A stretch of DNA of 64,000 bases from Obrimoposthia wandeli (lineage: Eukaryota): the NCBI GenBank assembly GCA_977020255.1, contig CDROCS010000774.1, positions 372,001 through 436,000 of the forward strand, written 5' to 3'. Shown here piece by piece: positions 442 to 31,109 of the stretch (position 1 is the first letter of the stretch; the number at the start of each line of letters is the position of its first letter). The notes beneath the pieces were generated by a model. That model had not been told where the DNA came from. It did not search any database and worked only from the letters and a program-made list of their open reading frames with translations. Both the position numbers and the translations under genes were made by a program.

Positions 442-1175
442 TCTCTTACTTCCATACTCACGTGTTTTGATGACATCGCCATCGAATATATACGTTGGTC
501 CTTTTGTATCAGCATCTTTTGTATTTCCTTTACAACTCGTTTTCTTCGCTTGCATCCAGCGAATGTTGTTGATATTCGGTCAAGTGTGCGCTGTCGGTCA
601 GCTTCGTAATCTATTCGAAATTGATTCAGTATTCTGTTTTGTGGGTAAAATATCGCTTCATTTACTATGTTGTCCTCGATCCTTTCGTCTAGATACACAA
701 GCACTTTGTTCGTTGGTCCATTTGGTCTTTTCATCTTTACAAACTGAAATCTTTTACTGTCGGTTCTCATAGATCGAAGACATTTTCGGATGATCCACAC
801 ATCAATTAGTCCTAACAACACTAATAGCATCATCAGTGCCGGTGTATGGTACTGTGTGGTGTAGTTGTGGATTTCGTTGAACCAGGAACTATTTCCGTGG
901 TTGGAGCCTATCTCCTGTGCTCCCGTTATCGGCAGTAAACAACTTAACAAGCCTATCGCTAGCAATCTTTGGTATTGAAAGCTGGGCACTGTTGTTGTAG
1001 CTTCATTTGTTTCTCGTTGTTGCTTCCTCTTTTCGGTGTATTTTTCTATTTCTCGAACGAGTAACGGTTTGAATTCCGTATTTGGTCTATTCTGTTTTAT
1101 GTAGACCATCGCTTCTTCTGGCGTGTGACCATGGTACTCTACCAACAAGGATACACCTATGGTAGGCGCTAACAT
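438..1175 (-). CDS. Continuation ORF: C-part of pseudophosphatase plus two hydrophobic segments
   Basis: GTMLAPTIGVSLLVEYHGHTPEEAMVYIKQNRPN parallels GISRSATLVLAYLIKTRRMQVLEALKYLQERRS of DSP1. It joins the upstream ORF by a 1-nt shift in an A-run at ~1186. Hydrophobic segments LLAIGLLSCLLPITGA and ALMMLLVLLGLIDVWII. Confidence 0.75.
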   Translation of the reverse strand: MLAPTIGVSLLVEYHGHTPEEAMVYIKQNRPNTEFKPLLVREIEKYTEKRKQQRETNEATTTVPSFQYQRLLAIGLLSCLLPITGAQEIGSNHGNSSWFNEIHNYTTQYHTPALMMLLVLLGLIDVWIIRKCLRSMRTDSKRFQFVKMKRPNGPTNKVLVYLDERIEDNIVNEAIFYPQNRILNQFRIDYEADRQRTLDRISTTFAGCKRRKRVVKEIQKMLIQKDQRIYSMAMSSKHVSMEVRE

Positions 1176-3514
1176 CGTACCTTTTTCTGATATATCAGAA
1201 CGCCGTTTCCTTCTGTGACTTCAGCTTGGATGGTTTGAGTCAATTTCGTCAGATGTTGTTGTGCATCGTTTATTTCTCGATTGGAAGCGTGTATGTATCG
1301 AGTGGTGTCATCTTCAGTATTTTGACACAGACTGATTATTTCGTTTCCGACTTCAACAATGTTGATTACTCGGTTGATACTGTGGAACTTTAATCCAGCA
1401 GTATCTATATCTCCTGGATGACATAAAAATACCTTTGGCATTATCTGTGTAATTTTGTCGACTCCGGCTAAGAATAACCCGGTCAATGATAATGCTTGGA
1501 GGAAATTCTTTTCCTTTGGATCCTCAGGAATGTCGTCCATCCGTCTTTGTTCTTGCAACAGAAGTTGGTAATTTGCCAACTGTCCCAAAAAATTAAGATT
1601 TGGGTTTGCAATACTTCTTCTCTCCTGTAGGTATTTTAGCGCTTCTAGTACCTGCATTCGTCTAGTCTTTATTAGATATGCTAATACTAGAGTTGCTGAT
1701 CGAGAAATTCCTTTCTGGCAATGTACTAACACTTTTCCTTGGTTCCGGAGTTCTCTGTGAAGTATTTCGTTTGTTTCTACGAACCATTCGAGAAGATTAG
1801 CGTCCATTGAGTCTTTTACTCTTAATGTCATAGCTCTGATCGTCTGATATTGTGATTTGTGATTCATTGTAACGTTGATCACGTATGTTATCCCTTGTTC
1901 CAACAGTTTCTTTTCATCTGTTGCATCCTCCACATTTCCGAGGTATAACTTACCTGGAATGATCTCACTCATTGGTGGCATTAATTCTGACTCTTCAAGT
2001 TTTAGTCTTTCTAATCTCTTCTCTATTTGTTCGTCGATGTTGGATAGTTTCGCCAATTTCTTTCCTCTCAGCATTCGTATTGCTGGAGAGATATTCATCT
2101 TTGTCTCTGATGTCTGTTCCTTTGTTGAGTCTTCTTCCGATTCGGTCTCTTCTGCAGATTTAATTCGTCTTTCTTGTATATTCTGTTTCACGAATTCTAT
2201 GTTTTGTCTTTTTCTGCTCTCTTTAGCGAATTCAACCTCCATGGTTCTTCCGAATCGCTCTATTATGTTATCTTCGGATTCTGTTGATTCTGTATCGTTA
2301 CTTTCCGGTTCGCTGTCTTGACTAGACTCGCTCGAAGGGTATTCTGGTATGTCTGTCTGAACTGAAATTAATGAAGGGGTTAGAATAATTGGATTGATTT
2401 CCCCTTCGTATTTGTGAATCGGATACGGTATTACGCTATCTTTAAGTATTTCAACTTGGAATTGTGCTCCATAGCACATGACAATTGTTTCCAATTTACC
2501 CATGATGGACAATCCATCAAAATAGGTAACATTCAGCTTAGATATCGGTGTCTTCGCATAATTAATTAAGTTTACTCGTATCTCGGTTGATGATGGCCAT
2601 CGATTTTTTAGTAAAATTATAATTTCGTCGTTTATCGATGTAATTACACTTGGTGCGGATGATACTATTTCGGCATGATATTTTGGCTGGTTTGAAGTTG
2701 TTACTTGTTCTCGGATCATATTGATTCTTTGTGGTTTTTTATTTTTAGCTTCCCACTTCCGGTATCCGCTGTCAATGCGTAACTCTGCCGTTGCTTTGAT
2801 GATTTTATTGTTAGTCACTTCCGGATGGGTTGGCGAATGAAATCCTTCTATTACGCTCAACCTTACAGATACTTCCGTTTGATCTGTGTCTAACCGGTGA
2901 GATTCTGGTATACAACATACAATTGTCTTTCCATCAAAGTATTTGGTGTCCATCTGACAAATTATCTTTTCAGTGTCAGCGTCGATTAAATGGACTCTCA
3001 TGATATCTCTTTTCCCATGTGAATTACGTAATACCATTATTACATCGTGGTATTCTTGTTTGAGTCTTTTTGGTGTACCATGCAGTATGTGACCACCGGC
3101 CGGTTCTTTTTCTTCCTGACTGGCTAGTCCTGCTTCAGTACTGACATAGTTCTGCCATGCAACTATGTTTGGTGTCAATGTGATTTCGATTATCACTTTC
3201 TCAGTCGTAAACACATTGGAATTTTGATAAAGTGCTGCGACTAATGTATTTCCGTCGTAGTATGACACTCTAAGTTCGCACAGAAATTCGTTTGTCAGTG
3301 CATCTTTCACAATGACTTTTTTCGCCACATCTGTTGGTTGTGTTTTTTCGAAAACAACTATTATCTCTTCGTCTTCTTCTAATATCTCTTGTGGTGCGAT
3401 GTGTCGGATTACTTCCTTTTCCTCTTGGTACTTCATTCTGAGCATACCAATTCTCGCTGGTTTTTCCTCGCTACCACTCGTCATCATGTTTATGTAGTTC
3501 CGATCACTTACCAT
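1169..3514 (-). CDS. Post-integrase cargo ORF: 3 IPT/TIG-like repeats, dual-specificity phosphatase, N-part of a second phosphatase-like domain
   Basis: DSP motifs IIPGKLYLGN, GITYVINVT, general-acid D (VKDS), VLVHCQKGISRSATLVLAYL (1697-1723) and NPNLNFLGQL. Three repeats carry P..I....II and Y(Y/F)DG.T/S motifs. The frame is open upstream to ~3598. Confidence 0.85.
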   Translation of the reverse strand: MVSDRNYINMMTSGSEEKPARIGMLRMKYQEEKEVIRHIAPQEILEEDEEIIVVFEKTQPTDVAKKVIVKDALTNEFLCELRVSYYDGNTLVAALYQNSNVFTTEKVIIEITLTPNIVAWQNYVSTEAGLASQEEKEPAGGHILHGTPKRLKQEYHDVIMVLRNSHGKRDIMRVHLIDADTEKIICQMDTKYFDGKTIVCCIPESHRLDTDQTEVSVRLSVIEGFHSPTHPEVTNNKIIKATAELRIDSGYRKWEAKNKKPQRINMIREQVTTSNQPKYHAEIVSSAPSVITSINDEIIILLKNRWPSSTEIRVNLINYAKTPISKLNVTYFDGLSIMGKLETIVMCYGAQFQVEILKDSVIPYPIHKYEGEINPIILTPSLISVQTDIPEYPSSESSQDSEPESNDTESTESEDNIIERFGRTMEVEFAKESRKRQNIEFVKQNIQERRIKSAEETESEEDSTKEQTSETKMNISPAIRMLRGKKLAKLSNIDEQIEKRLERLKLEESELMPPMSEIIPGKLYLGNVEDATDEKKLLEQGITYVINVTMNHKSQYQTIRAMTLRVKDSMDANLLEWFVETNEILHRELRNQGKVLVHCQKGISRSATLVLAYLIKTRRMQVLEALKYLQERRSIANPNLNFLGQLANYQLLLQEQRRMDDIPEDPKEKNFLQALSLTGLFLAGVDKITQIMPKVFLCHPGDIDTAGLKFHSINRVINIVEVGNEIISLCQNTEDDTTRYIHASNREINDAQQHLTKLTQTIQAEVTEGNGVLIYQKKVRC

Positions 3515-3599
3515 TCGTGTAAGTTTAATGGTATTGGTATTCGATTTCGATTTCTGTGATCTTAACTCATATCGTGACGCATTATCTTTATTTGGTACT

Positions 3600-4670
3600 C
3601 AATTTGCATCGATTTGCATGTACAATCATCGGCTCCTTGTTCCGATTCTCCTCGTTGATTACTTTCAAATTTGTTGAGGTTGTCTGATCACCTTGTATGG
3701 TCCTTTGTATGGTCTGTGAAGTTTAAACGATAGACCTGGTTCGATGACTGGATAAAATATCATCACTTGATCTCCGACTCTAAATTCATGTGGTTTTGCT
3801 TTTTGTCGTATTGTTCCTTGTAACCTTCTTGATTGAATTTCAACTTCAATCCGGCTTTGGTCCAAGCATCTTGTAACCTTTCCTTCATGACGACAATGTA
3901 TTGTTCAGTTTCTAGGTACTGAGATGTTGGCTCGGTCCATTCCAGATCCATTGGCATATTGTTCTGTCTGAGATACATCAGATAGAATGGTGTGTGACCC
4001 GTCGCCTCTCGAACTGAATTCCTGTAAGCATATAAACATGAAGGTAATATTTATCCCAATCCTCTTGCTTGTCTGAGCAATAGATTGTACCATCATACAT
4101 AAAGTTTTATTAAACCTTTCCACCAGACCATCTGTCTGTGGGTGATATGGTGAAGTTTGTAACTTCATGATTCCGAATATCTTCGATACTGCTTTTATGA
4201 CTTCTCCAGTGAAGTTCTTACCTTGATCCGTTAACAATTTTCTAGGCACTCCGTATCGAAATATTATCTCTTCTACTAAGATTTGTGCTATTGTTTCAGC
4301 CTTCTGGTTCTGCATGGGATATGCTTCTACCCATCTCGTCATGTAATCCGTAAATACTATGACATACTTGTTTCCTTTACTTGATTCTCTCAATGGTCCC
4401 AATATATCCATCGCTGTGAATTCCATTGGTGCCAAGGGAACTGGCATTGGTTTCAACGGAACTTTAGTACGAGTTCCGGTGTCTTTTCTGGTTAAACATA
4501 CTTTACATTGTTTACACCATTGTTTTATGTCGTCTTCCATACCATCCCAATGGTACTTCTCTTTGATTCTGGCTATTGTCTTTCGCCCTGACAGATGTCC
4601 TCCTAGTGTTCCGTCGTGATACTGGATCATCACTGCTGTTTTCAATGACTTCGGAATTACTACTACTATC
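3600..4670 (-). other. Integrase (HHCC + DDE core + C-terminal GPY region; C-terminal part split by frameshifts)
   Basis: YHDGTLGGHLS..CKQCKVC; AMDILGPL, LTDQGKNF, YHPQTDGLVERFNKTL. Across frameshifts the sequence reads DWDKY-LPSCLYAYRNSVREATGHTPFYLMY, FRVGDQV, YKGPYKV and IVHANRCK. Confidence 0.93.
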
Positions 4671-7600
4671 TTTCCGACATTATTGACAATATACAAGATT
4701 CCTTCTTTTATCGAGTATTTTTTCGTCATTTCATCGTTTAGATCTCCTTTCACCAACAATTCTTTGATTAGACTCAGTTCTTCATCTTCTTTCTGTTCTT
4801 TGATGATCTCTTTGTCTATTTTACCCGTCTTTAGCAAAATCGTCAGTAGATTTGCTTCTCCTTTTTGGTCATTGGTTTCATCTTCTTCTGGAATTATGTT
4901 TCCTTTCTCGTCTACATTTGTCAATCTCGACAAACAATCTGCGTTGCCGTTCGACTTTCCGGTTCTATAACGGATTTCTAGATCGAATTCGGCCAATTTT
5001 AGAAACCATCTGTTTAATCTACTCATCTCATCTCTATGTTTATATAAGAACTGTAGTGGTTTGTGATCTGTATACAGGAATACTTTTTGTCCTAGCAAAT
5101 AGTGTCTGTACTGTCTACATGAATACACTATGGCTAGACATTCCTTTTCGATAACAGAGTATCCTCTTTCGGCTCTGTTTAATCCTCTACTCGCATACGC
5201 GATGACGTGTTCTCTTCCTTCGTCATCCTCTTGTCCCAATACTGCTCCTACAGCATAGTTACTTGCATCTGTCATGAGTATGAACTGTCGGTTTATATCT
5301 GGGAACGCTAATATTGGTGCTTTTATCAATCTTTCTTTTAAATGCTCGAACGCTTGTTGGGCTTCTTTTCCCCATATGAACTTCTCATCTTTTCTCGTCA
5401 ACTTTCTCAATGGTGTTGCTATATCTGAAAAATGTTCAACAAATCGTCTATAATAATTCGCAAGACCTAAAAAACTCTGTATCTCCTTAACAGTCTTTGG
5501 CGCTAAATGCGCTTTTACTTTCTCGATCTTTGCCGGATCAGGTCGAATGCCTTCTTTCGATACTATATGTCCTAAAAATGTTACTCGCTCTTTAGCCCAT
5601 TCGCATTTTGTAGGTTTAACTTTTAATTTAGCGTTTTCCAGTCTTTTAAATACAACTTCAAGATTTTTTAAATGTTCTTCGAACGTTTTCGAAAATATTA
5701 TTATGTCATCAATATAAACCATCGTGTTTGCACACGATGCGAGTACAAAATTCATGCAACGCTGAAATGTTGCTGGAGCTCCTGTCAGTCCGAATGGCAT
5801 CTTTTCGCATTCGTATAATCCATCTCCGCAGGAAAAGGCTGTTTTGTGTTTATCCTCTTCCTCTATCTCGATTTGCCAGTATCCACTCTGCAAATCCAAT
5901 GTCGTAAAATAATCTGAATTACCCAATTTATCGAGCATCTCTTCGATTCTAGGTAATGGATACACATCTTTTCTTGTGATCTTGTTCAGTTCTCTGAAAT
6001 CTATACAGAATCTCATTTTCCCATCCTTCTTTTTTACCAACACCACAGGTGCTGAGAATGGCGAAAAACTCGGTCTAATTACTCCTGTTTTAGACATATC
6101 TTCAATCTGACTTTTTACTTCATCTTGTAATTGTAATGGTACTCGATATGGTCTTCTTCTGACTACTTTGTCTTCTGTCAGTGGTATTGTATGTTTTATG
6201 ACAGGTGTTTCTCCTATGTCATATGGATTTTTTGCAATTACTTTCGGAAATTTATGTATTAGATCAAGTAATTGTTTCTTTTCTCTAGTTGTCAGTCTTT
6301 CTGATTGGATTACTATTTCTTCGTAATCGTTCGTATCTTTATCGAGTTTCATAGCACACACGGTGGGATTCTCCATCTGTGCTATCTTTCCCAACCTCAT
6401 TCCTCTGTATAATAGAATGTCATTGTTGGTTGTATTCATCAGTCTAACTGGTATTTTGTGGTTTTCGATCAGGCATACTGTACTCACAACTGGTAATTCG
6501 TATTTCTCTATGAAATCTCGTGATGGTTCGAACACAACTGGTCCTTTATCTTCTGATAATGTGTGACCTTGAATAAGAAATTGCGATCTTTTACCGATTT
6601 TTATAGGAATCTCTATAATTACATCAATTTGGTTTATTTGTCTGTTTGATGTGCTATCCTTCAATCTTGGATCTTGTAAATCAATACTTATCCCTTTAAG
6701 TTGTGATAGTACATCCATTCCTAAAATTGTAGGTTCAGGACATTCTTTCATGATTCTAACTGGTATAGTGATCGTATTACGTCCAATTATAAATGTACAT
6801 GGTAATATTCCCGTCACTTTTACAGGGTCTCCATTGACCGATACCAAGAATTCATCTGGTTCTGCCATTGTTCGTTTCTGTTCCTCTGTCAAACAGTCTT
6901 CACTTACTATCGAAGCTACAGCACCTGTATCAATTAAGGCTTTTACTCTTAAATTATTTACTCTAATGATAGCTGCTGGTCGCTGTGCTCCATTTATGTT
7001 TCCCATATGGTATATTGTATTTATCGAATTATTACACTCTGTCAGTCCACTTCCTATGTTTGGATAGTGAAATCTAATGTTTCTCACTTGTCGATCTATT
7101 ATTCTTCGACAAATCGGACATGATACCATTTCATTCGCACATCTCCGACATGTTCTGACATGTCCGCATGGTAGAAAGGCAACTTCTATTTTGTTGACCA
7201 TGCAAACTGCGCATTCCGGATCTTCTAGTACGTATTCTAATTCATTTATGTACTCTTTCTCTTTTGTTTCGATTGTACTGTCATCTTTATCTCGCAGTAA
7301 TTCAAAAATCGATCCGTATCCGTTTCGCGTAGTTTTTATTTTTAATTCTACCAATTCTCTAATTCTTTCTGCTTCTTTTGGATATAACCTTCTCACGAAT
7401 GACACTACCGGTGTGTCTTGTTGAGCCAAAATCTCTTTTCGTGTGATTTGGTATTCGATTATACATTCGGTTTTCTGTTCTTTTTGCTTTATTTTATTAC
7501 AAAATTCGCAAAATTCATGATGTAAAATTTTCTTAGGTAGCTCAAGAGTATATCTGTCGATAATTCGTTCTTTTTTACACTTGTGGCATTTAATTACGTC

Positions 7601-10600
7601 TTTACCATCCTTTTTTATAGCAAAAAGTCCCTTTTTTGCCAATTTTTTAAGTCTTGGGTCTTCGAAAGTTATTTCTCGATACTGTTCGTCACATTCGTTC
7701 ACTTCTCGCATAACTTCGAATATATCTTCAATTCGACTATTCGTTATTACTCTACCTGTTATTAGAGCTGATTCTCCTTTTGGAATCCCGTCACTGTAAT
7801 CGAAATCGGGTGCTTTTCCCGTTTGGATTTCTGGTACGTTTGACGTTTTCAGTTTCAAAAGAAATGGACAATTTGGTGCATCTTTTTTATGACGTCTCAT
7901 TGGGTTTTCATTCTTTTCCCATTCTCTGAACTTTACTCTACACCATACGCATCGTACTACTATCTCTTGACCATAACTGCTTGTCGCATTTAACATTTCT
8001 AACCCTGATCTTGCCATTTTACGTGCCATTCCTTTTGAATAGTACTGTTCTAATATATTTCGTCTCTTTCTCTCGAATCTCATGGGATCCCTTTCTGACA
8101 GATTTACATATGTTATTTTTCTCCTCGTCGTATCTTGTGGTCCGAAATTTACATTTTTGTAGTGAAGTATCGACTTTGCTAGCGCTTCCTGTTTTCTGTC
8201 TGGGTACGAACCTCCCATACGGAACGTAGTGCATTTTTCCTTTTCGACTATGGGTCCTCTCAACATTTTTATCTCTCTCACTGAACTGTCATTCTTATAA
8301 CTCTTGTTGTTTGGTAGTATAATTATTCCTTCAAACATTCGTATTACGTCCATCCCAATCATGACTGGACTACCGCAATCTGTGAATATTCTAGCATTTA
8401 ACTGCAATGCTCTTCCATCGATATTCAATGAACATTTTAGTGTTCCTTCCGACACTACATCTGTACCATTCACGTTAACAAATGTCTGTTTTCTAGGACA
8501 TACTTCTCTTAATTCTTTTGATGACAAGATTTCTTTACTCAGTACTGATACTGCAGATCCGGTATCAACTTCGGCAAGATATTCTCTTCCGTTCAATGTT
8601 ACTGCTACTTGTGGTGGAGCATTTGGATTCTCATTTGATATCCTAGATTTCAGAATTCTTCTGGAATTATCTTTTTTGTCTTTTTCCTCTGCTTGTGGAA
8701 TCTCACTGTAGCTCACTTTAGGCCATCTTATCATTAGGATGCCTCTCTTGAACTTTTCCTTTTCCTCCTTTAGTTCCTTCATTGGATATAGGTTTAACGC
8801 TACTTCTTCCTTGTCTGGTAATGGAATCTTCGGTTTTCCTGGTATCTTTGCATATACTTCTGGACTATCATTATCGTCGTCGTTGTCGTCTCGATAGTTT
8901 CTTGGTTCTCTCATCATGGTTCTCGTTTGGTGTTGTTCCTTCTTGAGGGCTCGCAACTCGTTCTCGTGATGATGGTGCATTAGATATTTTGCTAAAAATG
9001 GAAAACATCCAACTATAAGTTGCCAGGTGATTCCGGTTATCCTGTATAAACTATACGTAGACAACACCTGGGCTATAATTACCTGCACAAATTTAATTAT
9101 AACATAAATACCTATGATACCCGAAAATAATTGTCCTAAAACAAGGAATTTCCCCCACATCTTTCTAAGTGTCTGATGTGCTGCTTCCTTGAAATGACTT
9201 GGCGATAATAACATATCGAAATTCGCATATCTCGCTCCTGGCGGTAATGCTCGATGTACCATCTCCGTAAATACTCTGGCTCTTCTTACTGGAAACATTA
9301 TTTCGTTCCACGCCGCTTTTAAATCTCTTTCATTGTACAATCCTGCGTTCTCCATATTTTCCACCGCTTGGAATTTCATTTTACCTTTAAGATTCGTCAT
9401 TCTTATCATCGCTGGGGTTGTCGTTGGCTTTCGATCAGGTAACGTTATCCATAGATTATTCGTCATCTGATATTCAGGTGCCATTATATTAGAGCAGCTG
9501 ATTTCTTTAGTTGGAGTGTCTTTTGGAAGTAACATTCTCGTGATTGGCTCAACAAAAAGATCTTTTAAATTATACGTTACTGCCAATTCGCTCGTACATC
9601 GATCTGTTTTTCTCAACTGTACCTCTACTTTATTACACTTGTAAGTATACAATACTTCTCCCATGGTTTTAGCAAATACTCCTTCATCCAAGGGTAATAA
9701 TGGTGCTACCATGTCTGGATTCGTAATAGCTAATGCTAATTTTGTTCTTACGATCTCTTTGTTTAGCTGGCAATCTCTTTCGATCATCATCCGATATAAC
9801 TGTTCCATTTGCATCAATCCTTTATGATAATAGAAATCAATTTTATTATTAAAATACGTGTGTAGCTGCATATCTTTTGGTTTTAGCTTGGTTTCTGCCA
9901 ATGCTATTGCTTCTTTAGACAAAACTATTCCTGGATAGTTTGTAGTACTAACAGTCATTCCGCATCGCGCTTTGTTTCTCTTTTTAATAAATATCAATCC
10001 TTCTTCTATTGATGTTGCCATTAACAGTGTAGGTGTTTTTGTCATTGGGATTGGTCTTGTTTCATTGAGCAATCCTTTTCCAACTTTATTATACAGGAAT
10101 CCTTCTCCATCTTTATTATACAGGAATCCTTTTATTTTATTAAAGCTAATCTCTTTCAAAAATACTAAAGAGCATTGCTTCGGATTTATGTTATACACAA
10201 TTGTGGATTCGCCTGTAAAACAAGATGTATCTGTCATTTTACATTCTGGATACTTCATCATTAGTTGTGTCTTTTTATCAAAATTGGCGGTCCATGTTTT
10301 TAATTCGATTTTGTAAGTTACATCCATTACTAACTCAGATACTTTGGTTCCACGCACGTTTTTTGTTTCTCCGTCACAAGATCCATCAGCCCATCGTTGT
10401 CCGACTCTCGTGACTGTTTCGTATCGTCTCACTCCAATTTTTACTTCAGGTTTGTAATTCTTGTCTACCTCTATTGTTCCCGTTCGAAATGCATCTTCGC
10501 AATCTCTCGGCAAAACCTTATGTGCCTTGTACGGTGTGGTAGGTGTGATTTCTGACATAAAACTTCTATGGCCACAATAGAATTCGTGATAACTTGAATG

Positions 10601-13600
10601 GATTGAACATTCTTTCACTTCTACTTGTACTTTATCAACATCCTGATACACAAAGTAGTTTTCAACACCTTGAACTTCTAGTTTTGACGGTTGTGATTCT
10701 GGACAGTCTTCGCTGTCAAGCAGTGAATACTTTTGTCCCATCTTTGGTATGCTACAGTCATATGCTATCAATCCTGATGCCTGTTGCATTCCCATAAACA
10801 TTACTAACATCATCATCATCATTGTGGTGGACATATTTGGTTGATTGTTTCTCTCTTTCGGACGGTATTGTTTATTTTCCTTTTGACGATTCTCATGACA
10901 TTGTTCGTCATCGTCTTCATTCATTTCCAAAATGGTTTTAGCGTAGTCACTTAATTTTGCCCAACCTCCGTTTTCGTCAATTCGTCTCTGTAATACATTC
11001 TCTATCAAATACATCGCTTCATTTATTCCTTGTTTGACTTCGTGAGGTTGGCTCGTTCGTTCCGTCAATTGGAAACATAGATATGTGATCGCTGTAATTA
11101 ACTTTTTATTTGTAGTCTGGTTTCCACATAGTCTCGCTAAAACTTCACCGTCATAAAATCTATCTATCGATGCATGGTATACATGATTCGCGGTCATTCT
11201 CTTTACTGCAGACATCTGTGATCTGACTGCTTTAGTCAAATTGTCTGTTATATCGGTTGTTTCATCTCTGTACATTTTAAACAACTTCGGCTTCACTTGC
11301 CTGAGAATTCCCGTAAGTATATCTTTACTACTTGGAGTTTCCGAATTCATATCACCTCTGATATCTTCATTCCTCTCTGCACTATACTGCTCTAATGACG
11401 CTGCTAACTGTCCAATACTTAGATGTCTCTCTTCATCAGTTTGTGGTGCTGTTAGAACATTTCGTAATATACTTTCGCCTTTTCTAGGTCTTCCAGGTCC
11501 TCTTCGAAAATACTGATACTCAGTTTGATCCTCTCCTGGATCATACGTTTCACCATTATACTGTATCTCTTGACTTGGTCCTTCTTCATGGCCAATCTCT
11601 TCACTTTGTCGCATCATTTGCTCTGCTTGTCTATCTTTGTATGCGGCATGCCAAATTGGTGAATCCAAATCTACAATCTCGGAGACTTCGTCTTCTCCTA
11701 CTAGTTGGGTTACGGTTTCGTTTTGTCTCACTTGGTTAGCTGTATCCGTGACTTCATCTTGTCTGATTGGAATTATATCTGGTTCTGGTGGCACCTCGAC
11801 CACTGGAGTTGTCAACTCATTTTCTAAATTCATGTCTTGTAATTCAGCTACGTACGGTTCTGGTGTGGATGTCTTGTTCCAAGCTTCAGCTACATCATTA
11901 TCTCCGCTTTCGCTTGAACTGTCTAAAATTTCTATAGGCGTTTTTATCATTTCTAACGCAGAATTCAATATCTCGGATAATCCTTCATTATCTACTAACT
12001 CTTGACGTCCTACAGTGATGACATCAATTTTTTCCTCTAATTCATTTCCTATCGGATATCCACACTCGACTGGTACGTCCTCATCATCTAGTGATCTCCC
12101 TTTATAATGGAACAACATATTCATTCCATCAATTTCAAGTTTCTCGGCCAACTTTTTCCGAATCGTTTTCATTGTTTGATACACGTTAAGTTTTTCATGT
12201 ATTATCTGTCCGGAAATTAATCGAAGTGAAATTTTCATCGTTCCTTTTTGGTTTGATCTCTGTACATAACGACCATAACCTTTCAGTAGTCCTCGGGGTA
12301 CTTCTTTGTAACCCAAGTTATCATGACTATGTTTAACCAATTCTGCACGCACTTCTTCCAATCGGTGCACTTTAATTGTTTGCAATTTGGCCAAAACTTC
12401 TGGAGCTTCACTCGTTTCATCTAACGGTTGATTCAACGTCTCCTTAGCTTCACTAATTATCTTTTTTACATCTTCCATACTCGTAGCATTTCTCGCTGCT
12501 TCCACATGATCAGTCATAGGTTGTGCGTTACACGTTTTCTCTATTGGTGTCTCATACGCTTCTAGTATTCTATTCATTAAATCATTCATCTCTTCTCTCG
12601 AGTGTAGACTTTTCTCTTGTTTCGACAACGTAGATGAATTCGCCATCTTTGTATGTGGTGAATCTTTAATTATTCCCAACATTCGTTCAAATTTACTATC
12701 ACTATCTTCAAAATCTATTTCGCGTCGAAGCTCGGTCTCGCGATTCCTATCACTGTCATCGCTTACATAACTAAAATTTCCTTTCGGTTTCGGCGAACTC
12801 TCTCGACTATTTGTCTTGTCGACATTATTATTATTATATCTACCAGAATTATTATATCTCTCAGCTCCTTGCTGTCCTACGTAATTATTGTATCTCTCAG
12901 CTCCTTGCTGTCTGTCTGCATAGTTATTGTATCTACCTGGTGACTGTTGTCTATCTGTATACTGATTATTCAGTCTCCATGGCTGTGGAGTATATCCACC
13001 ACCTCTATTCCATGGCGGAGGTGAATTATATCCTCTATAATTATTTCCAAAATTATTATTACCGAAATTATTATTTCCAAATCTGTTAGCTCCGAACTCT
13101 TTACTTCTCGTACAATCTCTCGAATAGTGACCCATTTGTTTACACGTGTAACACATTATTCTCCCTCGAATATCTATCTTATTTTGTTCATCTTCGAACT
13201 GTACTCGACGACTATTCTGTCTATTATCATAGCGTCCTCTAAAATCATTTCTTCGGAAATTCGATTCAAAACCGCTTCCTCGATTATTGAATCTTCCGTC
13301 ACTATTTCCTGCATTATTTCCAAATCGAGAGTCACTTCGCTCTCCTCTGTTGGCGTTATAATTCCTATCGTCTCCTCTCCAAGGTTGGCGATTTCCGGAA
13401 TTATCTCTATTAAATCTATTCCTGGAATCATCTCTATTTCTATTCCACGAATCATTATTATTTCTACCTCTTGAATCATCTCGATTCCTGTTCCAAGACT
13501 CACTATTATTTCTACCTCTTGAATCATCTCGATTCCTACTTCGGAAATTATCTCTATTTCCGTTACTGGATTCATCTACTTTTTCAAACTTATTTTGTCC

Positions 13601-14434
13601 ATAATTTCGATTCTGAAAATTACTCGGTTCTGTTTTATTCACGAAGACCTTTGTCTTATCGTCGTCACCTGCAGTCATTGCGTAGATTGCCAATGCTGCA
13701 TTATTTTTTATATTTTTCTCAATCTCTCTCGCCTTTCGTACGGCGTTATCAAAATCATTTGTATCCGATACTGCTAATAACACTTTAATATCCTTTTTCA
13801 ATCCTCCTCTAAATATATCTAACAAGACCTCTGCCATTTCATTTTGGTTCCGGTCATTTTCCGCTGCTTGTGCTTCTGGAGCTACAGGATTACCGTCCTG
13901 ATTTCTCATTATTCTTCTTGGGTACGCTCTTGCGGCCAAGGTTCTCAAAACATACGCGTATTCATTCACGCCTTCATCATGTTTCTGTTTCCGTTCTCTC
14001 ATGAGTCGCTTATTTACTTTGGCTAAGTCTCCTAATACCAATTTTCCAATAAAAGCATTTTCCAACGTTGGCCAGTCTAAACGTTCTGCTTCTGTCAAAT
14101 GTTTATACACTTCAAGTGCTAATCCGGTTAAATGTGCCTGTACTCTGACACATTTTTCTCTATCGTTCCATCCTTGAACATCTGCACAACTCGAATATTC
14201 TGCGAGGAAGTCACAAATACTTTCCTCATCTCCTTTAAACTTTGTAATCTGCAATGATCCTGAAAAATTGGGTCTCAACGTCGCATTTAAAGCTTGTGCC
14301 AACTGCTCGGCATTCATTTCACCTACATTATTTCCTGCATTAATATCTGGTGGAGCTCCTTGGTGAGCCATATCGTCAATTATATCGTCTTCAATTATTC
14401 CTTCAATATTATTTACTTGAACTTCTTCAATCAC
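3905..14434 (-). CDS. Gag-cargo-Env-Pol polyprotein (3509 aa in ORF track; first ATG at 14371; true C-terminus continues past frameshifts at ~4069/4046)
   Basis: Uninterrupted 10.5 kb ORF with recognisable Gag, Ubl, Bcl-2-like, glycoprotein, two proteases, BIR/RING, RT, RNase H and integrase motifs. Confidence 0.95.
   Translation of the reverse strand: [3509 protein letters not shown]
4920..5290 (-). other. RNase H (Ty3/Gypsy type)
   Basis: [50 protein letters not shown]. Confidence 0.95.
5560..6245 (-). other. Reverse transcriptase (Ty3/Gypsy type)
   Basis: [69 protein letters not shown] (YIDD at 5705-5716), FLGHIVS. Confidence 0.97.
6700..6985 (-). other. Retropepsin aspartic protease 2 (canonical Pol position)
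   Basis: [15 protein letters not shown] (DTG at 6923-6931) and ILGMDVL motif. Confidence 0.9.
7100..8075 (-). other. Inhibitor-of-apoptosis module: BIR1, degenerate BIR2, C3HC4 RING
   Basis: BIR1 (7860-8075): MARSGL..VRCVWC....[21 protein letters not shown]. BIR2 (7500-7690): LAKKGLF....DVIKCHKC...HHEFCEF. RING (7100-7215): [36 protein letters not shown], typical of IAP RINGs. Confidence 0.9.
8330..8615 (-). other. Retropepsin aspartic protease 1
   Basis: [22 protein letters not shown] (DTG at 8558-8566) and C-terminal VMIGMDVI motif. Confidence 0.85.
8980..10834 (-). other. Chuvirus-type envelope glycoprotein (signal peptide, Cys-rich ectodomain, C-terminal TM)
   Basis: Signal [21 protein letters not shown] followed by [15 protein letters not shown], C......[21 protein letters not shown], CQL.....[21 protein letters not shown]..R....C..EL.[9 protein letters not shown] and TM [22 protein letters not shown]. 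This motif series is the one I recognise from Jingchuvirales glycoproteins and their retroelement captures. Confidence 0.85.
10935..11325 (-). other. Bcl-2-like domain (BH3-, BH1- and BH2-like segments)
   Basis: [24 protein letters not shown] is in register with Bcl-2 [35 protein letters not shown] resembles [25 protein letters not shown] resembles LHTWIQDNGGWDAF (BH2), with BH1-BH2 spacing within about 2 residues of Bcl-2. Confidence 0.65.
11477..11506 (-). other. AT-hook motif
   Basis: [10 protein letters not shown] matches the (K/R)-G-R-P-R-K AT-hook core. Confidence 0.65.
12010..12238 (-). other. Ubiquitin-like domain within the polyprotein
   Basis: [52 protein letters not shown] aligns gap-free by eye to ubiquitin residues 1-52 (M.I......G..I........T......K...K..I..........G..L.D). 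There is no C-terminal di-Gly. Confidence 0.75.
13110..14371 (-). other. Gag region with retrotransposon-gag core and CCHC zinc knuckle
   Basis: [32 protein letters not shown] and [19 protein letters not shown] (gag core / major-homology-like region). [14 protein letters not shown] = CX2CX4HX4C at ~13113-13157. Confidence 0.9.
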
Positions 14435-14807
14435 TTCTGGATTGGCAACTTCAATCCCCTCTGGGTTTTGAACTTCAATATTATCAATTTCTTCTGGGTT
14501 TATGTCACCAATTAACTCAGTCAGATCAAAACTATCGGTTGAAACTGCTGATTGATTTACGTCTCTTTCTGATACGTTTTCTTCGACTCTAGTCTTTTCT
14601 GTTACTTTGTTATCTGTTTGGGGAACCTGTTCAATTCGGTTAACTTTATTATTATTTGTCTCTTCCTTGGGAATCTGGCTTTGTCTTCTAGTATTAAACG
14701 CGGGTCCTTTTCTATTATCCGTTGTCTTATCAATTATGTATTCGTTTACGATATCAATTTACTTATTATTTTTATCTTATTTCACAATTCTTATTTTACG
14801 ATTTTTT

Positions 14808-15010
14808 ATCTCTTTAATTAGTTCGAGGACAGAGTCTCCCGACTTAACCTATTCAATTAATTACTTCGAGTATCAATCCACTCGATTCTCACTTTATCAA
14901 ATTTATTTACGATTTTATCTTTTTAATTAGTTCGAGGACAGAGTCTCCCGACTTAACTTATTCAATTAATTACTTCGAGTATCAATCCACTCGATTCTCA
15001 CTTATAAAAT
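14808..15010. repeat. Two tandem copies of a ~109 bp unit in the element leader
   Basis: gttcgaggacagagtctcccgacttaac at 14821 and again at 14930. Confidence 0.9.
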
Positions 15011-15016
15011 TTACTG

Positions 15017-15360
15017 ACTCGAGGAACAAATCCACTCGACTTCTCAAAACTTATCAAATTCTTAACTTCGAGGAACAAATCTACCCGATTTCTCAAAAAC
15101 TTATCAAATTCTTAACTTCGAGGAACAAATCTACCCGATTTCTCAAAAACTTATCAAATTCTTAACTTCGAGGAACAAATCTACCCGATTTCTCAAAAAC
15201 TTATCAAATTCTTAACTTCGAGGAACAAATCTACCCGATTTCTCAAAAACTTATCAAATTCTTAACTTCGAGGAACAAATCTACTCGATTTCTCAACACT
15301 TATCAAATTCTTAACTTCGAGGAACAAATCTACTCGATTTCTCAAAAACTTATCAAATTC
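15017..15360. repeat. 50-bp tandem array (6 full copies plus 1 degenerate) in the leader
   Basis: cttaacttcgaggaacaaatctacccgatttctcaaaaacttatcaaatt recurs at 15061, 15111, 15161, 15211, 15261, 15311. Confidence 0.95.
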
Positions 15361-15645
15361 TTCTGAAACTTATTCTCAATTGTCTATATTCTTCTGCTGA
15401 AACTTATTCTCAATTTATCTGAACTTATTCTCAATTTATCTGAAACTTATTCTCAATATCTGAAACTTATTCTTAATATCTGAAACTTATTCTTAATATC
15501 TGTAACTTATTCTTAATATCTGTAACTTATTCTTAATATCTGTACTTATTCTATTTACCTGAAACTTATTCTCAATTATCTGAAACTTATCCGAACTTAT
15601 TCTATTTACCTGAAACTTATTCTCAATTATCTGGAACTTATCTAC
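15361..15645. repeat. Degenerate ~20-bp tandem array (ctgaaacttattctcaat...) in the leader
   Basis: More than ten diverged copies of tctga(a/t)acttattct(c/t)aat are visible. Confidence 0.85.
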
Positions 15646-15670: not shown

Positions 15671-15689
15671 ATCCTCACTCGGGGCACCA
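15671..15689 (-). promoter_or_regulatory. Primer-binding site complementary to the 3' end of elongator tRNA-Met
   Basis: Plus strand ATCCTCACTCGGGGCACCA vs metazoan elongator tRNA-Met 3' end AUCCUCACACGGGGCACCA (18/19, recalled sequence). It lies 8 nt inside the LTR end. Confidence 0.8.
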
Positions 15690-16178
15690 CTTTAATATGT
15701 TGGGGTTTCTATACGAAACTTTGTATAGATCCTCTTAATGTGCGGAGGGCCCCAACGTGAGTTCGATTAGAAGCAGGTCTTAAAGTTGGTCGTGGCCTAC
15801 TTAGTGTTATGGTTGCCTAATCTCTTGTACTATCTGAAGGTATTTGATTAGATGCCTCTTAGTCTGAAGGGTGCAAAACAACTTGTTCTAATGTAGGAAA
15901 TTGTTTATTTGAAATTCACGTAACTAACACAACAATACGTTTATGTACGTATTTCTAAAAAGTATGATAAAATTCCTAAAGGACTTCTGTAAGTCTCTAC
16001 AAGAAGTGGGGATGAACCACGTATCGATTTTACGTTCAGGTGATTAAGCTTTTAGGTTTATTCTTCTTACTTAGGTTGGTTAATCTATAACGCAACTCTC
16101 TTAAATTTCTTTGCTCCTACTTCTTATCTCTAGATAAAGTTTCTTGGTTCTTTAACTCTATCTGCTGTGTGTTTGACC

Positions 16179-16585
16179 CCGAATTGTCCACTGTGAACAA
16201 TGGGTCTCCTAAAAACCTAATTGTCGAGATGACAATGAAAAACTTACTCCTAATTGTCAACTATGGACAATGAACGAGCCGAATTGTCAGCTAGGGACAA
16301 TGAGTCTTACCGAATTGTCAACTAGGGACAATGAGTATTTATCCGAATTGTCAACTAGGGACAATGAATCTTACGGGCAAAAAGTCTGGGTATGATTCCT
16401 AATTGTCGCTGGGGACAATGAATAAATGGCTGATCTTAATTACCAACTAGGGGCAATGATTTAGTTAAAGAGTCGGAAATCCTAATTGCCAGCTAGGGGC
16501 AATGAATATGTTTAAAATATGTTAAACAACCTAATTGCCAACAAGGGGCAATGAATTTATCCTAATTGCCAACTAGGGGCAATGA
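16179..16585. repeat. 11 interspersed ~25-bp palindromic units within the LTR
   Basis: CC(G/T)AATTG(T/C)C-N5-7-G(A/G)CAATGA cores separated by variable spacers. Confidence 0.9.
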
Positions 16586-16653
16586 ATGGTTTAGTTGGTG
16601 TTCTTACCTATATGTTACTCGAGATTCCGGTACAGGATCCGTATGTAGCTTGG

Positions 16654-17240
16654 GAGAATGGCTTATTTTCTCCTGATCGCAAATATAGATTGAGAATGGC
16701 TTATTTTCTCCTGATCGCAAATATAGATTGAGAATGGCTTATTTTCTCCTGATCGCAAATATAGATTGAGAATGGCTTATTTTCTCCTGATCGCAAATAC
16801 AAATTGAGAATGGCTTATTTTCTCCTGATCGCAAATACAAATTGAGAATGGCTTATTTTCTCCTGATCGCAAATATAGATTGAGAATGGCTTATTTTCTC
16901 CTGGTCGCAAATACAAATTGAGAATGGCTTATTTTCTCCTGGTCGCAAATATAGATTGAGAATGGCTTATTTTCTCCTGATCGCAAATACAAATTGAGAA
17001 TGGCTTATTTTCTCCTGATCGCAAATACAAATTGAGAATGGCTTATTTTCTCCTGATCGCAAATATAGATTGAGAATGGCTTATTTTCTCCTGATCGCAA
17101 ATACAAATTGAGAATGGCTTATTTTCTCCTGATCGCAAATACAAATTGAGAATGGCTTATTTTCTCCTGATCGCAAATATAGATTGAGAATGGCTTATTT
17201 TCTCCTGATCGCAAATATAGATTGAGAATGGCTTATTTTC
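16654..17240. repeat. 38-bp tandem array, 15 full copies plus a partial copy, within the LTR
   Basis: gagaatggcttattttctcctgatcgcaaatatagatt from 16654 to 17224, i.e. (17224-16654)/38 = 15. Variant copies carry tacaaatt or ctggtc. Confidence 0.97.
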
Positions 17241-20200
17241 TTTGGTTGATATTGAAAATCTAAATTATCGATTAAGTTGGCTGCATTCACCAATCTCTAC
17301 TTACCAATTCTCCGATTCCTGGGATATTGTGCTGTTCTGTTTAGTTTCTCCGTTTTCTTTGTAGGAGATATCAGTGACTTATATAGTTGCCTATTTGCTG
17401 TCAATCAGCACTCTTGACTTCTCTTCTCGGTCCGGGCTTGGCGGCAGCTGAAACTGCTAATGCTAGAAATCCACGTGAGTCCGGGCAGCTGCTAAATTGA
17501 ATTAATTAAATTGCACGTAAATGTGCTTACTTTTGACGTTTGTAGATTTCCTTTCTGCTGACGTTAGCAGATTATTTTTCCCTTTTTTGCTTTTTGCACT
17601 TTTGGGTTAATTAATTTAACTTTTATACATTTCACATTATACACGACCTTCGTGGTCCTCCTAATTTTTACCCTAAATTCCACTAATTTCAATTCTAAAA
17701 CTAAAATTAATATTTTAATTTAATTTTCAACCTTGCTTTCAAGGATTTTTATTTTAGTATTTAATCGACTAAAATATTTAAATTTCTTAATTCTCAAACC
17801 TAACACTAACAACAGTCATATCAAAAAGATTTATCTAAAAATAATTTGCCTTACTACTGAAATAACTACAATGCTAACGCATGTTATTAAAACTTGATTT
17901 AAAAAATTATTTTATATTTAATATTTTAGCTTAAAAAATTTAAACAAAGCAGACAAAATTATATTCAAAATATTTAATGAAGCTACATTGGCTACTTATG
18001 ATCAAAATATTCTCTCACAAAAACCAAGATATTTATATGATATTCTGGAGCCTGGTGATGTGACGATATATATGCATCTTAGGAACAACGTTGACGACTG
18101 TAGTTAAGGAATATTTGAAATTTATCTTCTTAATCTTTTTAAAAATCAACCGATGAATGTAAAAAACTGTTACAATGTTGATAAATTCAAGAAGCAATTA
18201 TTTAGAAAATATTACGAAGTATAATGTAAAACTAGAAGCACTTTTAAGTATTAATTCATAGATTTATTACATATTAGTGCTATATTAAATATATTATTGT
18301 TAATATACCGTTACTATGTACATAAATCTAATTATTCAAATCTATTAAAAACCATTTCTAAACGTTTTGAAAAGGAATGCAGTTTCTGATACGAAATGAT
18401 AACTGATTATATAATCAACCGATACACATTTTAGCATACGAATCTGAATTTATTTGGCTTTTACTTAAAGTAAACTACGTCTTTCATTCCTAAGAATACT
18501 TCTTCAAGTACTTACTCGTGATAAATGAAATATGATCCTGTTCTAAATACTCGTATCAAGTACTGTTTTCAAACTGTTTTTCGATTAATAGATTATAGCT
18601 CAAAATTTAGCCACTAATAATTAAACAATAAATTAATTCCGATGTAGACAGTACAAGTAAATCATTGAAATATTTAATGGTATAACCTTTATAACTATCA
18701 ATTAATTATTTTCGAGTAGGCCATAATATCCTACTAAATATTACAACATATATTCTTTCTATCATGTTCATTTTTGTGATGCAATTAAGCTAAAATTTGC
18801 AGCAATCTTATTTTGAAGATAATATGGGTGTGCAATTATGAAGGCAGAAGTTGTGTCAGGAAATAAAAGAATAACTTAATTGATTACATCATTGATAAAT
18901 ATCAATTTGCGAAGGTGTAAGTAATATCAAATTGTATTAATCGAATTAATATTGTCCAAATTGTTCTAGATAATTTGAAAAATTATAATTTGATAATTCT
19001 AACAGATCGCTAGATAATTTGAAAGCTTATTTTTTTAAATTGGCCTAAATAAGCTGTGGTCAATATAAAAATTTGCGTAAATAGTTCCAGGTAAAAAGTC
19101 ACAAAATTCGATTTCTGACGAGTAAATCTTGAGTAAAGTTTTGGTCCCACTAATTGACTTAACATACCCCTGCGTCATGAACTTTGGTTCAAACCTTTAC
19201 AGCAAGGGTTAAAGTGCAAGATACTTGACCTTTGACCCTTGCTGATAAGGGTTTGACTCTCAACTCATAGCTCATGACTTATGGGGTCCCGTTGAGCTAT
19301 TGAGCGAGAACAGACACTTTACACTACTTCCGACCATTACTGAATTCGATCATTTTTAATTGATATGATGTATGTTTGCTCAAATTTATTCAAATGAAGT
19401 TGTCATCAAACATATTCTCGTGTTTGAGGGTTCAAAATGTTGTAGTTGTCTAAGAAATTTACTTTCTTCCACTATGCATCAAAAAAATTACAAATATTAA
19501 AAGAAGTAAAAGTTATGTGTATTAGTTTCGTCTAAACATAACCGTAAAAATATTTTTTGCAACGGTTCTGCTCTATTATTTCACCAAGCAACTAACTACA
19601 AAATATCATTATTTTCAAATTCATACACTACATTTTAATTCACACCAACTGAAATCACAAAATTACAATCAAAACCATTTTCACAATAAGCATTACACAC
19701 GCGTGGAAATTAACAAAGCACTTAAAAGTGCTCAAATTTGCCTTATCAGAAATTAATTATGAACATAATGCTATCAGCAAAACAAATATTTGTCATGTAA
19801 ATAAATACACAGAATAACTAAACACAGAGCAACACCATACTTCAGTATTTCTTGATAGTTTTTAAACTATCATTATGTAACAACGTTTTGTAAGCTTGCT
19901 GATAAAAAATAAAACGTCGAATTAAAATTTTATGGCAAAGAAATGACAAACGTTAAATAGTCAAAAGTTTCAAATAACTTAAAAATCAAATACGTTATTG
20001 TCTACAAAATAAAGAGAATTGAAATTCGAAGTAAAAGTAGAATTCTCAAATTCCCATTAAACAAGCTAGTGATAATTCTGATAAATTTCATTCTGATAAA
20101 TATTTTAATATTTTAGTTCGTCATTTTATTATTCTGATTGCTTACTTCTGTTCGAGTTTTTGATTTATTGTTGTAGCTGTTTTGATAGAGAAGAGAAAAT

Positions 20201-26189: not shown

Positions 26190-26790
26190 AGTCAACAGGC
26201 TGCCAATAATTCGAAAATCCATATATATGGTGCTTTCTTTGGTGTACTCGAAGGCCGTGACCCTTGGGGGCCACAACGTCTCATGCCGCACCATGATCTA
26301 CGTGAGCAGTCAAATGCACCGCCTGTTCCTATCATATGAATCACAGCCATCACTTGGAATCTTGCCAGAAGACTTTCCAACTATAAAAATCACAAACAAA
26401 ATTACATCTGTGCTAAAAGGTATATTGCTAACGCTGTAATCAGAGCGATGAACAACGGATGTTGCACAGGAGCTACTTGTGGCAATGACAGCGGTTGCCC
26501 TCAGCATCAGGCTCCACCAGAACACCCTTCGTTACTCCCATTTTTATGTCGGCCCGAAAATAATGAGAAGACGCGCAACTGAGACCGATACTCGTCATCC
26601 ACTTTCAACATCTGCTCACACCGGCCATTACCAACAATGGATGGCCCTCCCGTCGAAATACATTTAAATGAATATGCCACCTTTCGTATCTGTCACACTG
26701 CGGCATCGATTCCAGTGCACTGGCAAGAAAAGGTACATCAAGACTTACTCCGTGACGAAGACTTCAACCTGGTGCCATAGGATGGTAACG
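26190..26790 (+). mobile_element. Fragment of a second Gypsy family (protease to RT N-terminus), related to the 57.8-61.5 kb element
   Basis: IYGAFFGVLEG, RTMIYVSSQMHRLFLSYE, LGILPEDFPT, ASIPVHWQEKVHQDL. The GxFFGxLEG motif recurs at ~59185-59205. Confidence 0.7.
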
Positions 26791-29349: not shown

Positions 29350-29499
29350 ATTTTTTAATATAAATAAATATTTTATTCATCTTATTCAATTTTCCTTGAT
29401 CTAAAATTTCAATGATTCCAATGGATGGTAAGCTTTCCATACCACGAGACGTAACAATGCCCGATCCGAGAAATTACATCAGCCGACACTAGCGGAGGC

Positions 29500-30870: not shown

Positions 30871-31109
30871 CTTTCAGACAATGATGAAAAACAGACTTGA
30901 TTTTGTAGAGGTTTCATTGTTCATTGGACTGGGAAATTTTCTCGTTTTTATTTTTTTTATTACTATCTGTCTCTTATCAGTAACATCACTCTCTGCCTGC
31001 CAACGCTTATTCCAGTTGTGATGCGATTGGTGGGAGTTCTGCATATAATAGAGTTGGTTAAATATAAAAACTGCCAGTCTCATTTGTTCAAAGAGTATAA
31101 TGACGGGTA

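Follow-up and report, generated by a model that had tools for sequence, protein, structure and literature searches.

A 64,000-nucleotide stretch of the Obrimoposthia wandeli genome (assembly GCA_977020255.1, contig CDROCS010000774.1, positions 372,001 to 436,000 of the forward strand; hereafter "the window", from whose first base all coordinates are counted) was analyzed computationally. On its minus strand lies a copy of a Ty3/gypsy-type element that resembles the planarian retroelement Burro, and the long polyprotein of this copy contains an inhibitor-of-apoptosis protein (IAP) between two aspartic proteases. The IAP is maintained in an active lineage under purifying selection, and by alignment and phylogeny it is kin to stand-alone IAPs carried by Polintons of the same genome. 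With moderate confidence, the module is regarded as a working accessory IAP of the element, translated within the polyprotein and freed by the element's own proteases. Citations followed by "in part" refer to the available portion of the source.

The IAP module within the polyprotein

The features on which the argument rests are listed below, all on the minus strand.

3905..14758: polyprotein frame, 3617 aa from stop to stop
8345..8608: aspartic protease 1 (PR1), upstream of the IAP; residues 2051-2138, DTG at 8566
7055..8173: IAP module (residues about 2196-2568); its whole length is homologous to the stand-alone IAPs of Polintons
7859..8080: BIR1; CX2CX16HX6C motif at 7951-7868; 45 bits against Pfam BIR (cut-off 22.9)
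7499..7696: BIR2; CX2CX18HX3C (C2391, C2394, H2413, C2417); 16.8 bits in Pfam, under the cut-off
7268..7441: UBA-like helical domain, matching the XIAP UBA (2KNA)
7109..7213: RING, C3HC4; 46.8 bits in Pfam; Arg2551 directly after the last Cys
7058..7108: RING tail ending RNIRFHYPN; Tyr at 7066-7064, Pro at 7063-7061 (Tyr2565-Pro2566)
6692..7009: aspartic protease 2 (PR2), downstream of the IAP; residues 2592-2689, DTG at 6931

A preliminary description of this DNA had placed an IAP inside a retroelement polyprotein, and the open frame (14758..3905) bears this out. Of the two BIRs and the RING that it named, BIR1 and the RING were recovered by Pfam and BIR2 as a BIR fold in a structure model, but the UBA between BIR2 and the RING had been missed; the module is best read as BIR-BIR-UBA-RING. 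Its extent had been given as 7055..8075, whereas homology to the stand-alone relatives starts near 8173 and a protease lies on either side. BIR1 is canonical, as had been stated. BIR2 does have an odd zinc spacing, but "degenerate" does not describe it, as all four ligands are kept and the domain is strongly constrained. These ligands were invariant in all five rows of the first alignment, one of which has a spacing of 19.

In the AlphaFold model, BIR2 adopts a BIR fold (DIAP1-BIR2, 1JD4: Z 6.5, rmsd 3.7, 78 aligned), and the stretch from model residue 276 to 333 resembles the XIAP UBA 2KNA (Z 5.7, rmsd 2.9, 55 aligned). The best match of the model was cIAP1 BIR3-UBA (3T6P; Z 8.0, 127 aligned), with an rmsd of 14.6 that reflects differing domain placement. 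These middling Z values count because the matches fall in the expected domain order. At the sequence level, the UBA-like segment matched cIAP1 weakly (E 0.8) and did not rise above the reversed control on a UBA profile built from 57 cell-type segments; the relative P0003 scored 22.5 bits on the UBA profile. Foldseek returned no match at E<=0.001, and the ESM Atlas returned generic IAP clusters only. The basic residue after the last RING Cys (Arg2551) is as in active RINGs (PMC7010608, in part).

The two proteases are 28% identical without gaps, a similarity that suggests an old duplication or a recombination that accompanied the IAP.

Kinship with Polinton IAPs

A search of the same genome for BIRs, in which the best 150 of 12,110 candidates were scored and which was swamped by element copies, recovered other high-copy families of intronless, stand-alone IAP frames of 301 and 341 aa. 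These end in RRVRNVKFHGINN and RRVRNIRFHSIGN, respectively, each followed by a stop codon (tails FHSIGN and FHGINN), and have RNIRFH in common with the window. In the five regions that were read, the IAPs stand beside an A32-type ATPase (Pox_A32), an integrase with rve and chromo domains, and capsid-like frames, with pPolB (DNA_pol_B_2) where intact. Long inverted repeats surround the IAP genes in three of the five (C3067, C463 and C2440); the other two are rearranged. A double jelly-roll capsid was matched weakly in L174 (E 0.0097) and not in L183. By this gene content and these repeats, the regions holding the stand-alone IAPs are Polintons.

The Polinton IAP families were located at L189:676-1698, L190:689-1711, L182-L183 and L174-L175. 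Separately, a large inverted duplication in C777 was seen to carry the IAP twice, and at L187 a copy of the retroelement family is inserted beside a Polinton.

From SILHY to the tail, the window module aligned with the Polinton IAPs at 33% (E 4e-47) and 32% (E 7e-46) identity. The 341-aa Polinton family keeps the CX2CX18HX3C spacing; one Polinton family has a shortened BIR2, and two have lost the BIR2 zinc site. When 156 proteins were compared by BLASTP, the best non-Polinton match of each of three Polinton IAPs was the window IAP, whose own best match was P0003, followed by the 341-aa Polinton protein. The odd BIR2 recurs in the best database matches (P0003, P0004, P0007 and P0014), which are likewise stand-alone proteins. 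The markers of this lineage would be the CX2CX18HX3C BIR2 and an I/V-x-F-H tail that runs beyond the usual 13 residues.

The window, Polinton and database relatives formed one clade with an SH-aLRT of 100 in a 79-row tree (quick search), for which every second of 135 usable cell-type rows was taken and 11 were skipped. The same clade received 100/100 in a 38-row tree, from which 13 long or short rows had been left out before the remainder was thinned again. It stood apart from three IMG/VR viral IAPs and from 68 (79-row) or 29 (38-row) cell-type rows; among the viral proteins, the BIR-BIR-RING protein L084 lay far from it. The trees held no named baculovirus IAP3 or DIAP1 row. Scans of viral and metagenome sequences gave ordinary IAPs; among 84 loci checked, none was of the odd type, and one had a weak pol-like match 5 kb off. 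The layout had been matched to baculoviral IAP3 and DIAP1-type proteins; as closest kin of the module these are not supported, given the UBA, the grouping with Polinton IAPs and the distance from the three viral IAPs.

The module is therefore kin to the Polinton IAPs of its own genome, as judged from alignments, trees and motifs, and the shared lineage hints at gene exchange between the retroelement and Polintons. This link is the most interesting result, and it has one clear rival, namely that each took up the gene on its own, with no exchange between elements, from a rapidly evolving host IAP in which the odd BIR2 and tail were already present. Several observations weigh against the main reading or on the side of the rival. 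The clade sits on a long branch and has an odd letter composition, so that the shared motifs weigh equally with the support values. The window and Polinton proteins alone did not form a clade in the best tree, although such a grouping was not rejected (p-AU 0.25). A host BIR-BIR-RING gene was not found in the genome, but the search was swamped by repeats and its absence is thus not shown. The four database relatives come without genomic context, and the BIR2 of the window is fuller than in all of the Polinton families seen; for this reason, the direct donor is neither of the two forms as they now stand. On the other side, only two of the 30 BIR loci read were host-like by eye (survivin-like L142 and BIRC6-like L143, both single-BIR exons), all odd-type copies seen are intronless, and homology begins and ends at the same points in both kinds of element. 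Searches of the genome with P0004 and P0003 gave long-frame matches of similar score, and all 30 loci read for P0004 belonged to the family of the window element. On balance, separate capture is considered a minority possibility.

Selection on the module and its probable action

The element family is huge and young. The 131-aa junction between the RING and the protease was 100% identical in 150 of 150 scored candidates (from 19,605 first-look candidates), and RFHYPN was present in 20 of 20 loci. The identical junctions rule out an assembly artefact as the origin of the fusion.

For selection, variants common to at least 3 of 49 copies (two sets, of 19 and 30) were counted, and codons near gaps were dropped. 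The resulting ratio of replacement to silent variation (pN/pS) is a crude count rather than a codon model, and for short regions it rests on few variants. It was 0.07 for PR1 and 0.06 for PR2, 0.90 for the 30 residues preceding BIR1, 0.45 for BIR1, 0.04 for BIR2, 0.14 for the UBA, 0.06 for the RING and 0.09 for the RING tail; silent rates were alike across regions (0.17-0.44). BIR2 is thus the most constrained domain of the IAP, and its low ratio together with its four kept ligands rules out a decaying remnant. BIR2, the UBA, the RING and the tail are close to PR2 in their constraint. BIR1 is the fastest-changing domain, yet its zinc ligands are invariant among copies and only its surface varies. 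The fast change across 7859-8173, at a normal silent rate, may represent relaxed or diversifying selection.

Once freed, the IAP would most likely serve as a ubiquitin ligase on host death or immune factors, and E3 activity, dimerization and an anti-apoptotic effect may be expected of it. Together with the Bcl-2-like domain of the same polyprotein, it could keep element-expressing cells alive. Two observations detract from this picture. The model is poor overall (mean pLDDT 48.9, with about 80 over BIR2 and the following helical domain), and its RING is badly modelled. Moreover, in BIR1 an Arg and an Asp replace the Glu and Trp that surround the zinc His in cIAP1 BIR3, so that classical peptide binding may be altered.

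These BIR1 pocket differences also feed a second alternative, in which the released module is no caspase inhibitor; its targets as a scaffold or ubiquitin ligase would lie elsewhere, for example in immune signalling, among silencing factors or among the proteins of the element itself. The fast change in BIR1 and the stretch before it, set against a constrained RING and UBA, would suit such a role, as would the other products of the element, which include three RING-H2 proteins, a ubiquitin-like domain and a phosphatase. Against it, the Bcl-2-like domain, although weakly matched, points to control of cell death, and the whole IAP layout has been kept. This alternative is rated as rather unlikely.

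The RING tail and proposed release from the polyprotein

Translation would yield the IAP within the polyprotein, and the proteases would free it in the course of releasing themselves. Two intact and constrained proteases, each with its DTG, flank the module. In the predicted threading of the precursor, gag and everything after the env anchor would face the cytosol. Four features bear on the C-terminal cut (minus strand throughout; a slash marks the scissile bond).

7034..7057: variable spacer, residues 2568-2575, starting about where the Polinton relatives have their stop codon
7004..7015: IY/HM, candidate cut at bond 7010/7009, which would give the IAP C-terminus and the PR2 N-terminus
6350..6361: VC/AM, the same motif at the border between the PR2 extension and the reverse transcriptase (RT)
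13676..13687: IY/AM, the same motif after the capsid region of gag

The tail itself departs from the usual geometry. Among the 150 best database matches, 148 had a RING; the chain ended exactly 13 residues past the last Cys in 124 of these, and 122 had an aromatic residue at offset 11. In the window, Ile2561 is at offset 11 and Phe2563 at offset 13, and the frame runs on. The stand-alone relatives have tails of 13, 18, 19, 27 and 29 residues. In cIAP1, replacing Phe616, a residue that packs against ubiquitin in trans, with His cripples transfer (PMC6349121, in part); XIAP F495L has been reported as wild-type-like (PMC7010608, in part).

It had been proposed that cleavage after RQVRNIRF-HY, at a Tyr-Pro bond of retroviral type, would restore a near-native IAP C-terminus. 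The sequence and the position of the bond (7064/7063) are as described, but the Phe of IRF stands two residues past the canonical aromatic position. Because that position is occupied by Ile, the premise of a restored aromatic tail fails. The element proteases are still the likely means of release; it is the Tyr-Pro site that is weak.

Instead, the main C-terminal cut is probably at IY/HM, at the start of PR2, which would leave 33 residues past the last RING Cys. This is judged from the arrangement of the residues and their variation. The spacer (residues 2568-2575) has four replacement and one silent shared variants, and the stretch that follows and includes IYHM (2576-2590) has no replacement and three silent ones. 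The motif [IV]x/[AH]M occurs three times in the 3617 aa, compared to 0.93 expected, and every occurrence is at a domain border. At P2' of IY/HM, all 26 old copies have a hydrophobic residue (20 Met, 3 Ile, 2 Leu and 1 Val). Val or Ile predominates at P2 and P2' of Ty1 sites, and the profiles of Ty1 and Ty3 sites are reported to differ from retroviral ones (PMC6952103, in part); by this analogy, the motif fits the Ty1 pattern. The N-terminal cut would probably be in the conserved SVREIKML stretch after PR1.

Several facts tell against this assignment. The motif was defined after the sequence had been seen. It is absent before PR1 and before the integrase, and PR1 in the register of PR2 reads ILKS/RISN. 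A 33-residue tail exceeds the 13-29 residues of the stand-alone relatives, and Ile stands where cIAP1 requires Phe616. Across older copies, Tyr-Pro is as conserved as IYHM, so that conservation cannot choose between the sites. Of 30 mid-age and 26 old copies, 28 and 25 retain Tyr2565, and 30 and 23 retain Pro2566; a further Tyr-Pro bond, located in the N-terminal linker, is retained far less often (20 of 48 and 1 of 26 copies). The 49 young copies carry no weight here, as 30 were chosen for 100% junction identity and one place was counted twice. Word-index protein searches found no fused IAP-protease relative in other species (nothing at E<=0.001 among 1313 and 6025 candidates; by profile, only P0004 at E<=1e-25).

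Cleavage at Tyr/Pro (7064/7063), alone or as a second trim after IY/HM, is the next candidate. The bond exists and is kept in nearly all copies examined, the 15-residue tail that it would leave is near the usual 13, though without the canonical aromatic residue, and two proteases could differ in specificity. Aromatic-Pro sites are a retroviral class in which lentiviruses favor Asn at P2 and Val or Ile at P2' (PMC3185560, in part). Tyr2565-Pro2566 agrees at P1 and P1' but has His at P2 and Asn at P2', which fit neither this type 1 pattern nor that of Ty1 (PMC6952103, in part). Nor are Tyr/Phe-Pro bonds rare in the polyprotein (14, compared to 10.7 expected). FH-YPN aligns with the FH-SIGN and FH-GINN of Polintons, whose stand-alone tails end 18 residues past the last Cys; HYPN is thus probably an inherited native tail. 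That alignment can explain the conservation of Tyr-Pro, and a cut there would end the protein three residues before the point where the Polinton IAPs stop. Cleavage at this bond is considered improbable.

That the IAP stays fused to PR2 or the precursor, acting while tethered or with its RING silent until maturation, is very improbable: foamy virus polyproteins are processed at few sites (PMC3185560, in part), but a variable spacer followed by a conserved motif before PR2 resembles a cleavage site, and the RING and its tail are constrained.

The remainder of the element and its surroundings

The polyprotein runs in the order gag, ubiquitin-like domain, Bcl-2-like domain, env, PR1, IAP, PR2, RT, RNase H and integrase. 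In the Pfam reading, a CCHC knuckle came first, then a weakly scoring ubiquitin-like domain and a viral fusion glycoprotein; BIR and RING fell between the two proteases, ahead of RT, RNase H and integrase. The frame of the window copy stops shortly past the integrase core; other copies have open frames of up to about 5000 aa. The remaining features, again on the minus strand, are as follows.

15698..17805: 5' long terminal repeat (LTR), about 2.1 kb
13112..14371: gag, first Met at 14371; weak Retrotrans_gag match, single CCHC knuckle at 13153-13112
12059..12226: weak ubiquitin-like domain; E 0.0015, under the Pfam cut-off
10892..11251: weak Bcl-2-like domain with an NGGW motif; E 0.068; viral Bcl-2 1K3K, E 0.053
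8879..10835: envelope glycoprotein (env), between gag and pol in the same frame; its best-scoring stretch, 10039-8879, matches Monjiviricetes_fusion (E 1e-93); the upstream limit is a by-eye reading of a signal-like stretch
4139..6037: RT, RNase H, integrase zinc finger and core (Pfam)
1169..3598: downstream frame of 809 aa with a dual-specificity phosphatase (DSPc 1948-1565, E 3e-34)

The partner LTR lies 3.6-5.7 kb to the left of window base 1 (L081), giving an element of about 23.5 kb. The two LTRs match in 2039 of 2061 ungapped columns and are flanked by a 4-bp target duplication, CTAA. A 38-bp tandem array within the LTR (16654-17241) differs in copy number between the two, and the leader (14996-15640) holds 50-bp and 20-bp arrays. 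A primer-binding-like site is located at 15671-15689, eight bases inside the 5' LTR, and is presumably a match to elongator tRNA-Met. No obvious polypurine tract was seen ahead of the 3' LTR.

By eye, the start of a second phosphatase-like repeat was seen in the frame at 1169-3598; a dual-specificity phosphatase is not among the Burro domains listed in a review (PMC6431247). The three RING-H2 proteins are encoded in short tandem minus-strand frames (125, 121 and 194 aa) located 1.7-3.4 kb to the left of window base 1 (L081:6648-8258), just inside the 3' LTR and after two or three membrane-protein-like frames. RING-H2-like frames were also seen in older copies (L096 and L111) and in L175. Between PR2 and RT, about 100 residues (6359-6646) are constrained (pN/pS 0.05), where Burro has a dUTPase-like region.

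Elsewhere in the window, a decayed piece of an older copy of the same family (26778-28097) is 75-89% identical over gag, the leader and the LTR end, and this fragment served as the route to the older copies. At 41399-41779 on the minus strand, a stretch resembles by eye an exon of a host cysteine desulfurase (NFS1-like). Remnants of further decayed LTR elements, with pieces that by eye are like RT, RNase H and integrase, lie at 29432-32079 and 57863-60894 on the plus strand.

Implications

Whether carried apoptosis genes act on host cell death is an open question for the published giant gypsy elements. The selection data indicate that here the IAP is maintained in an active lineage, the two precise rival cleavage sites are separable by a peptide assay, and the stand-alone Polinton versions show the mature product to be expected. 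The RING variant would also test how far IAP ligases depend on the tail aromatic residue and on tail length; if it is active despite its long tail and the Ile in place of the aromatic residue, the tail rule of IAPs would have an exception in nature. If the gene exchange is real, genes have passed between virus-like elements of class I and class II within a single host. We tentatively suggest, somewhat short of even confidence, that an intronless IAP lineage with its own zinc spacing and RING tail moves, within one animal genome, between two unrelated virus-like elements, a DNA Polinton and an env-bearing retroelement. In the retroelement's polyprotein, the duplicated proteases around it would form a cassette for its release, and the surface of its BIR1 would be diversifying against a target in the host.

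Comparison with known systems

The closest published likeness is Burro/GYPSM1 of planarians, which has one huge open frame with gag, ubiquitin-like, BCL2-like, in-frame env, BIR and protease-RT-RNase H-integrase regions, a very high copy number and tandem repeats (PMC6431247). The window element has LTRs, a target duplication, gag, the same order of pol domains, an in-frame env and a BIR; its candidate ubiquitin-like and BCL2-like domains, which score under the cut-offs (E 0.0015; E 0.068 and 0.053), would precede env in Burro-like order. Burro frames of 4873-5140 aa compare with those near 5000 aa in some copies here. Burro, however, exceeds 30 kb; at about 23.5 kb, the present element is therefore Burro-like rather than Burro. 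It has one CCHC knuckle, and neither MATH nor ankyrin was matched in the Pfam scan. The Burro review names only "BIR" and one protease, with no BIR-BIR-UBA-RING between proteases, no phosphatase and no RING-H2. BURRO1 is expressed in live, differentiated planarian cells upon loss of PIWI silencing (PMC8532177, in part), which by analogy would be the kind of setting where an IAP pays.

GAG-ENV-POL Ty3/gypsy errantiviruses with an HSV/gB-type env, described from Platyhelminthes, Nematoda and Bryozoa, have the same gene order and a class III-type glycoprotein, and one flatworm env listed there appears homologous by eye (PMC13524379, in part). The words "apoptosis", "phosphatase" and "burro" are absent from its main text. 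Adintoviruses (Polinton/Maverick) are reported to carry IAP and Bcl2 homologues (PMC8502044, in part); in distinction to the window IAP, these IAPs are stand-alone genes with a stop codon.

With cIAP1 and XIAP (3T6P and 2KNA), the module shares the BIR-UBA-RING order, but it has two BIRs, no CARD, an odd BIR2 spacing, Ile at the Phe616 position and no native C-terminus. Baculovirus IAP3 and DIAP1 are similar in having two BIRs and a RING, and the BIR2 model matched DIAP1-BIR2 with the Z of 6.5 given above. IAP3 and DIAP1 are not known to carry a UBA, whereas the window IAP has one. In the full-text literature searched (mostly open, without the original Burro paper), neither a full IAP between two proteases nor an IAP shared by Polintons and LTR elements was reported. 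The element is of a known kind, as apoptosis genes in giant gypsy elements have been published; relative to that literature, the kinship of its IAP with those of Polintons and the placement of that IAP between two proteases are new.

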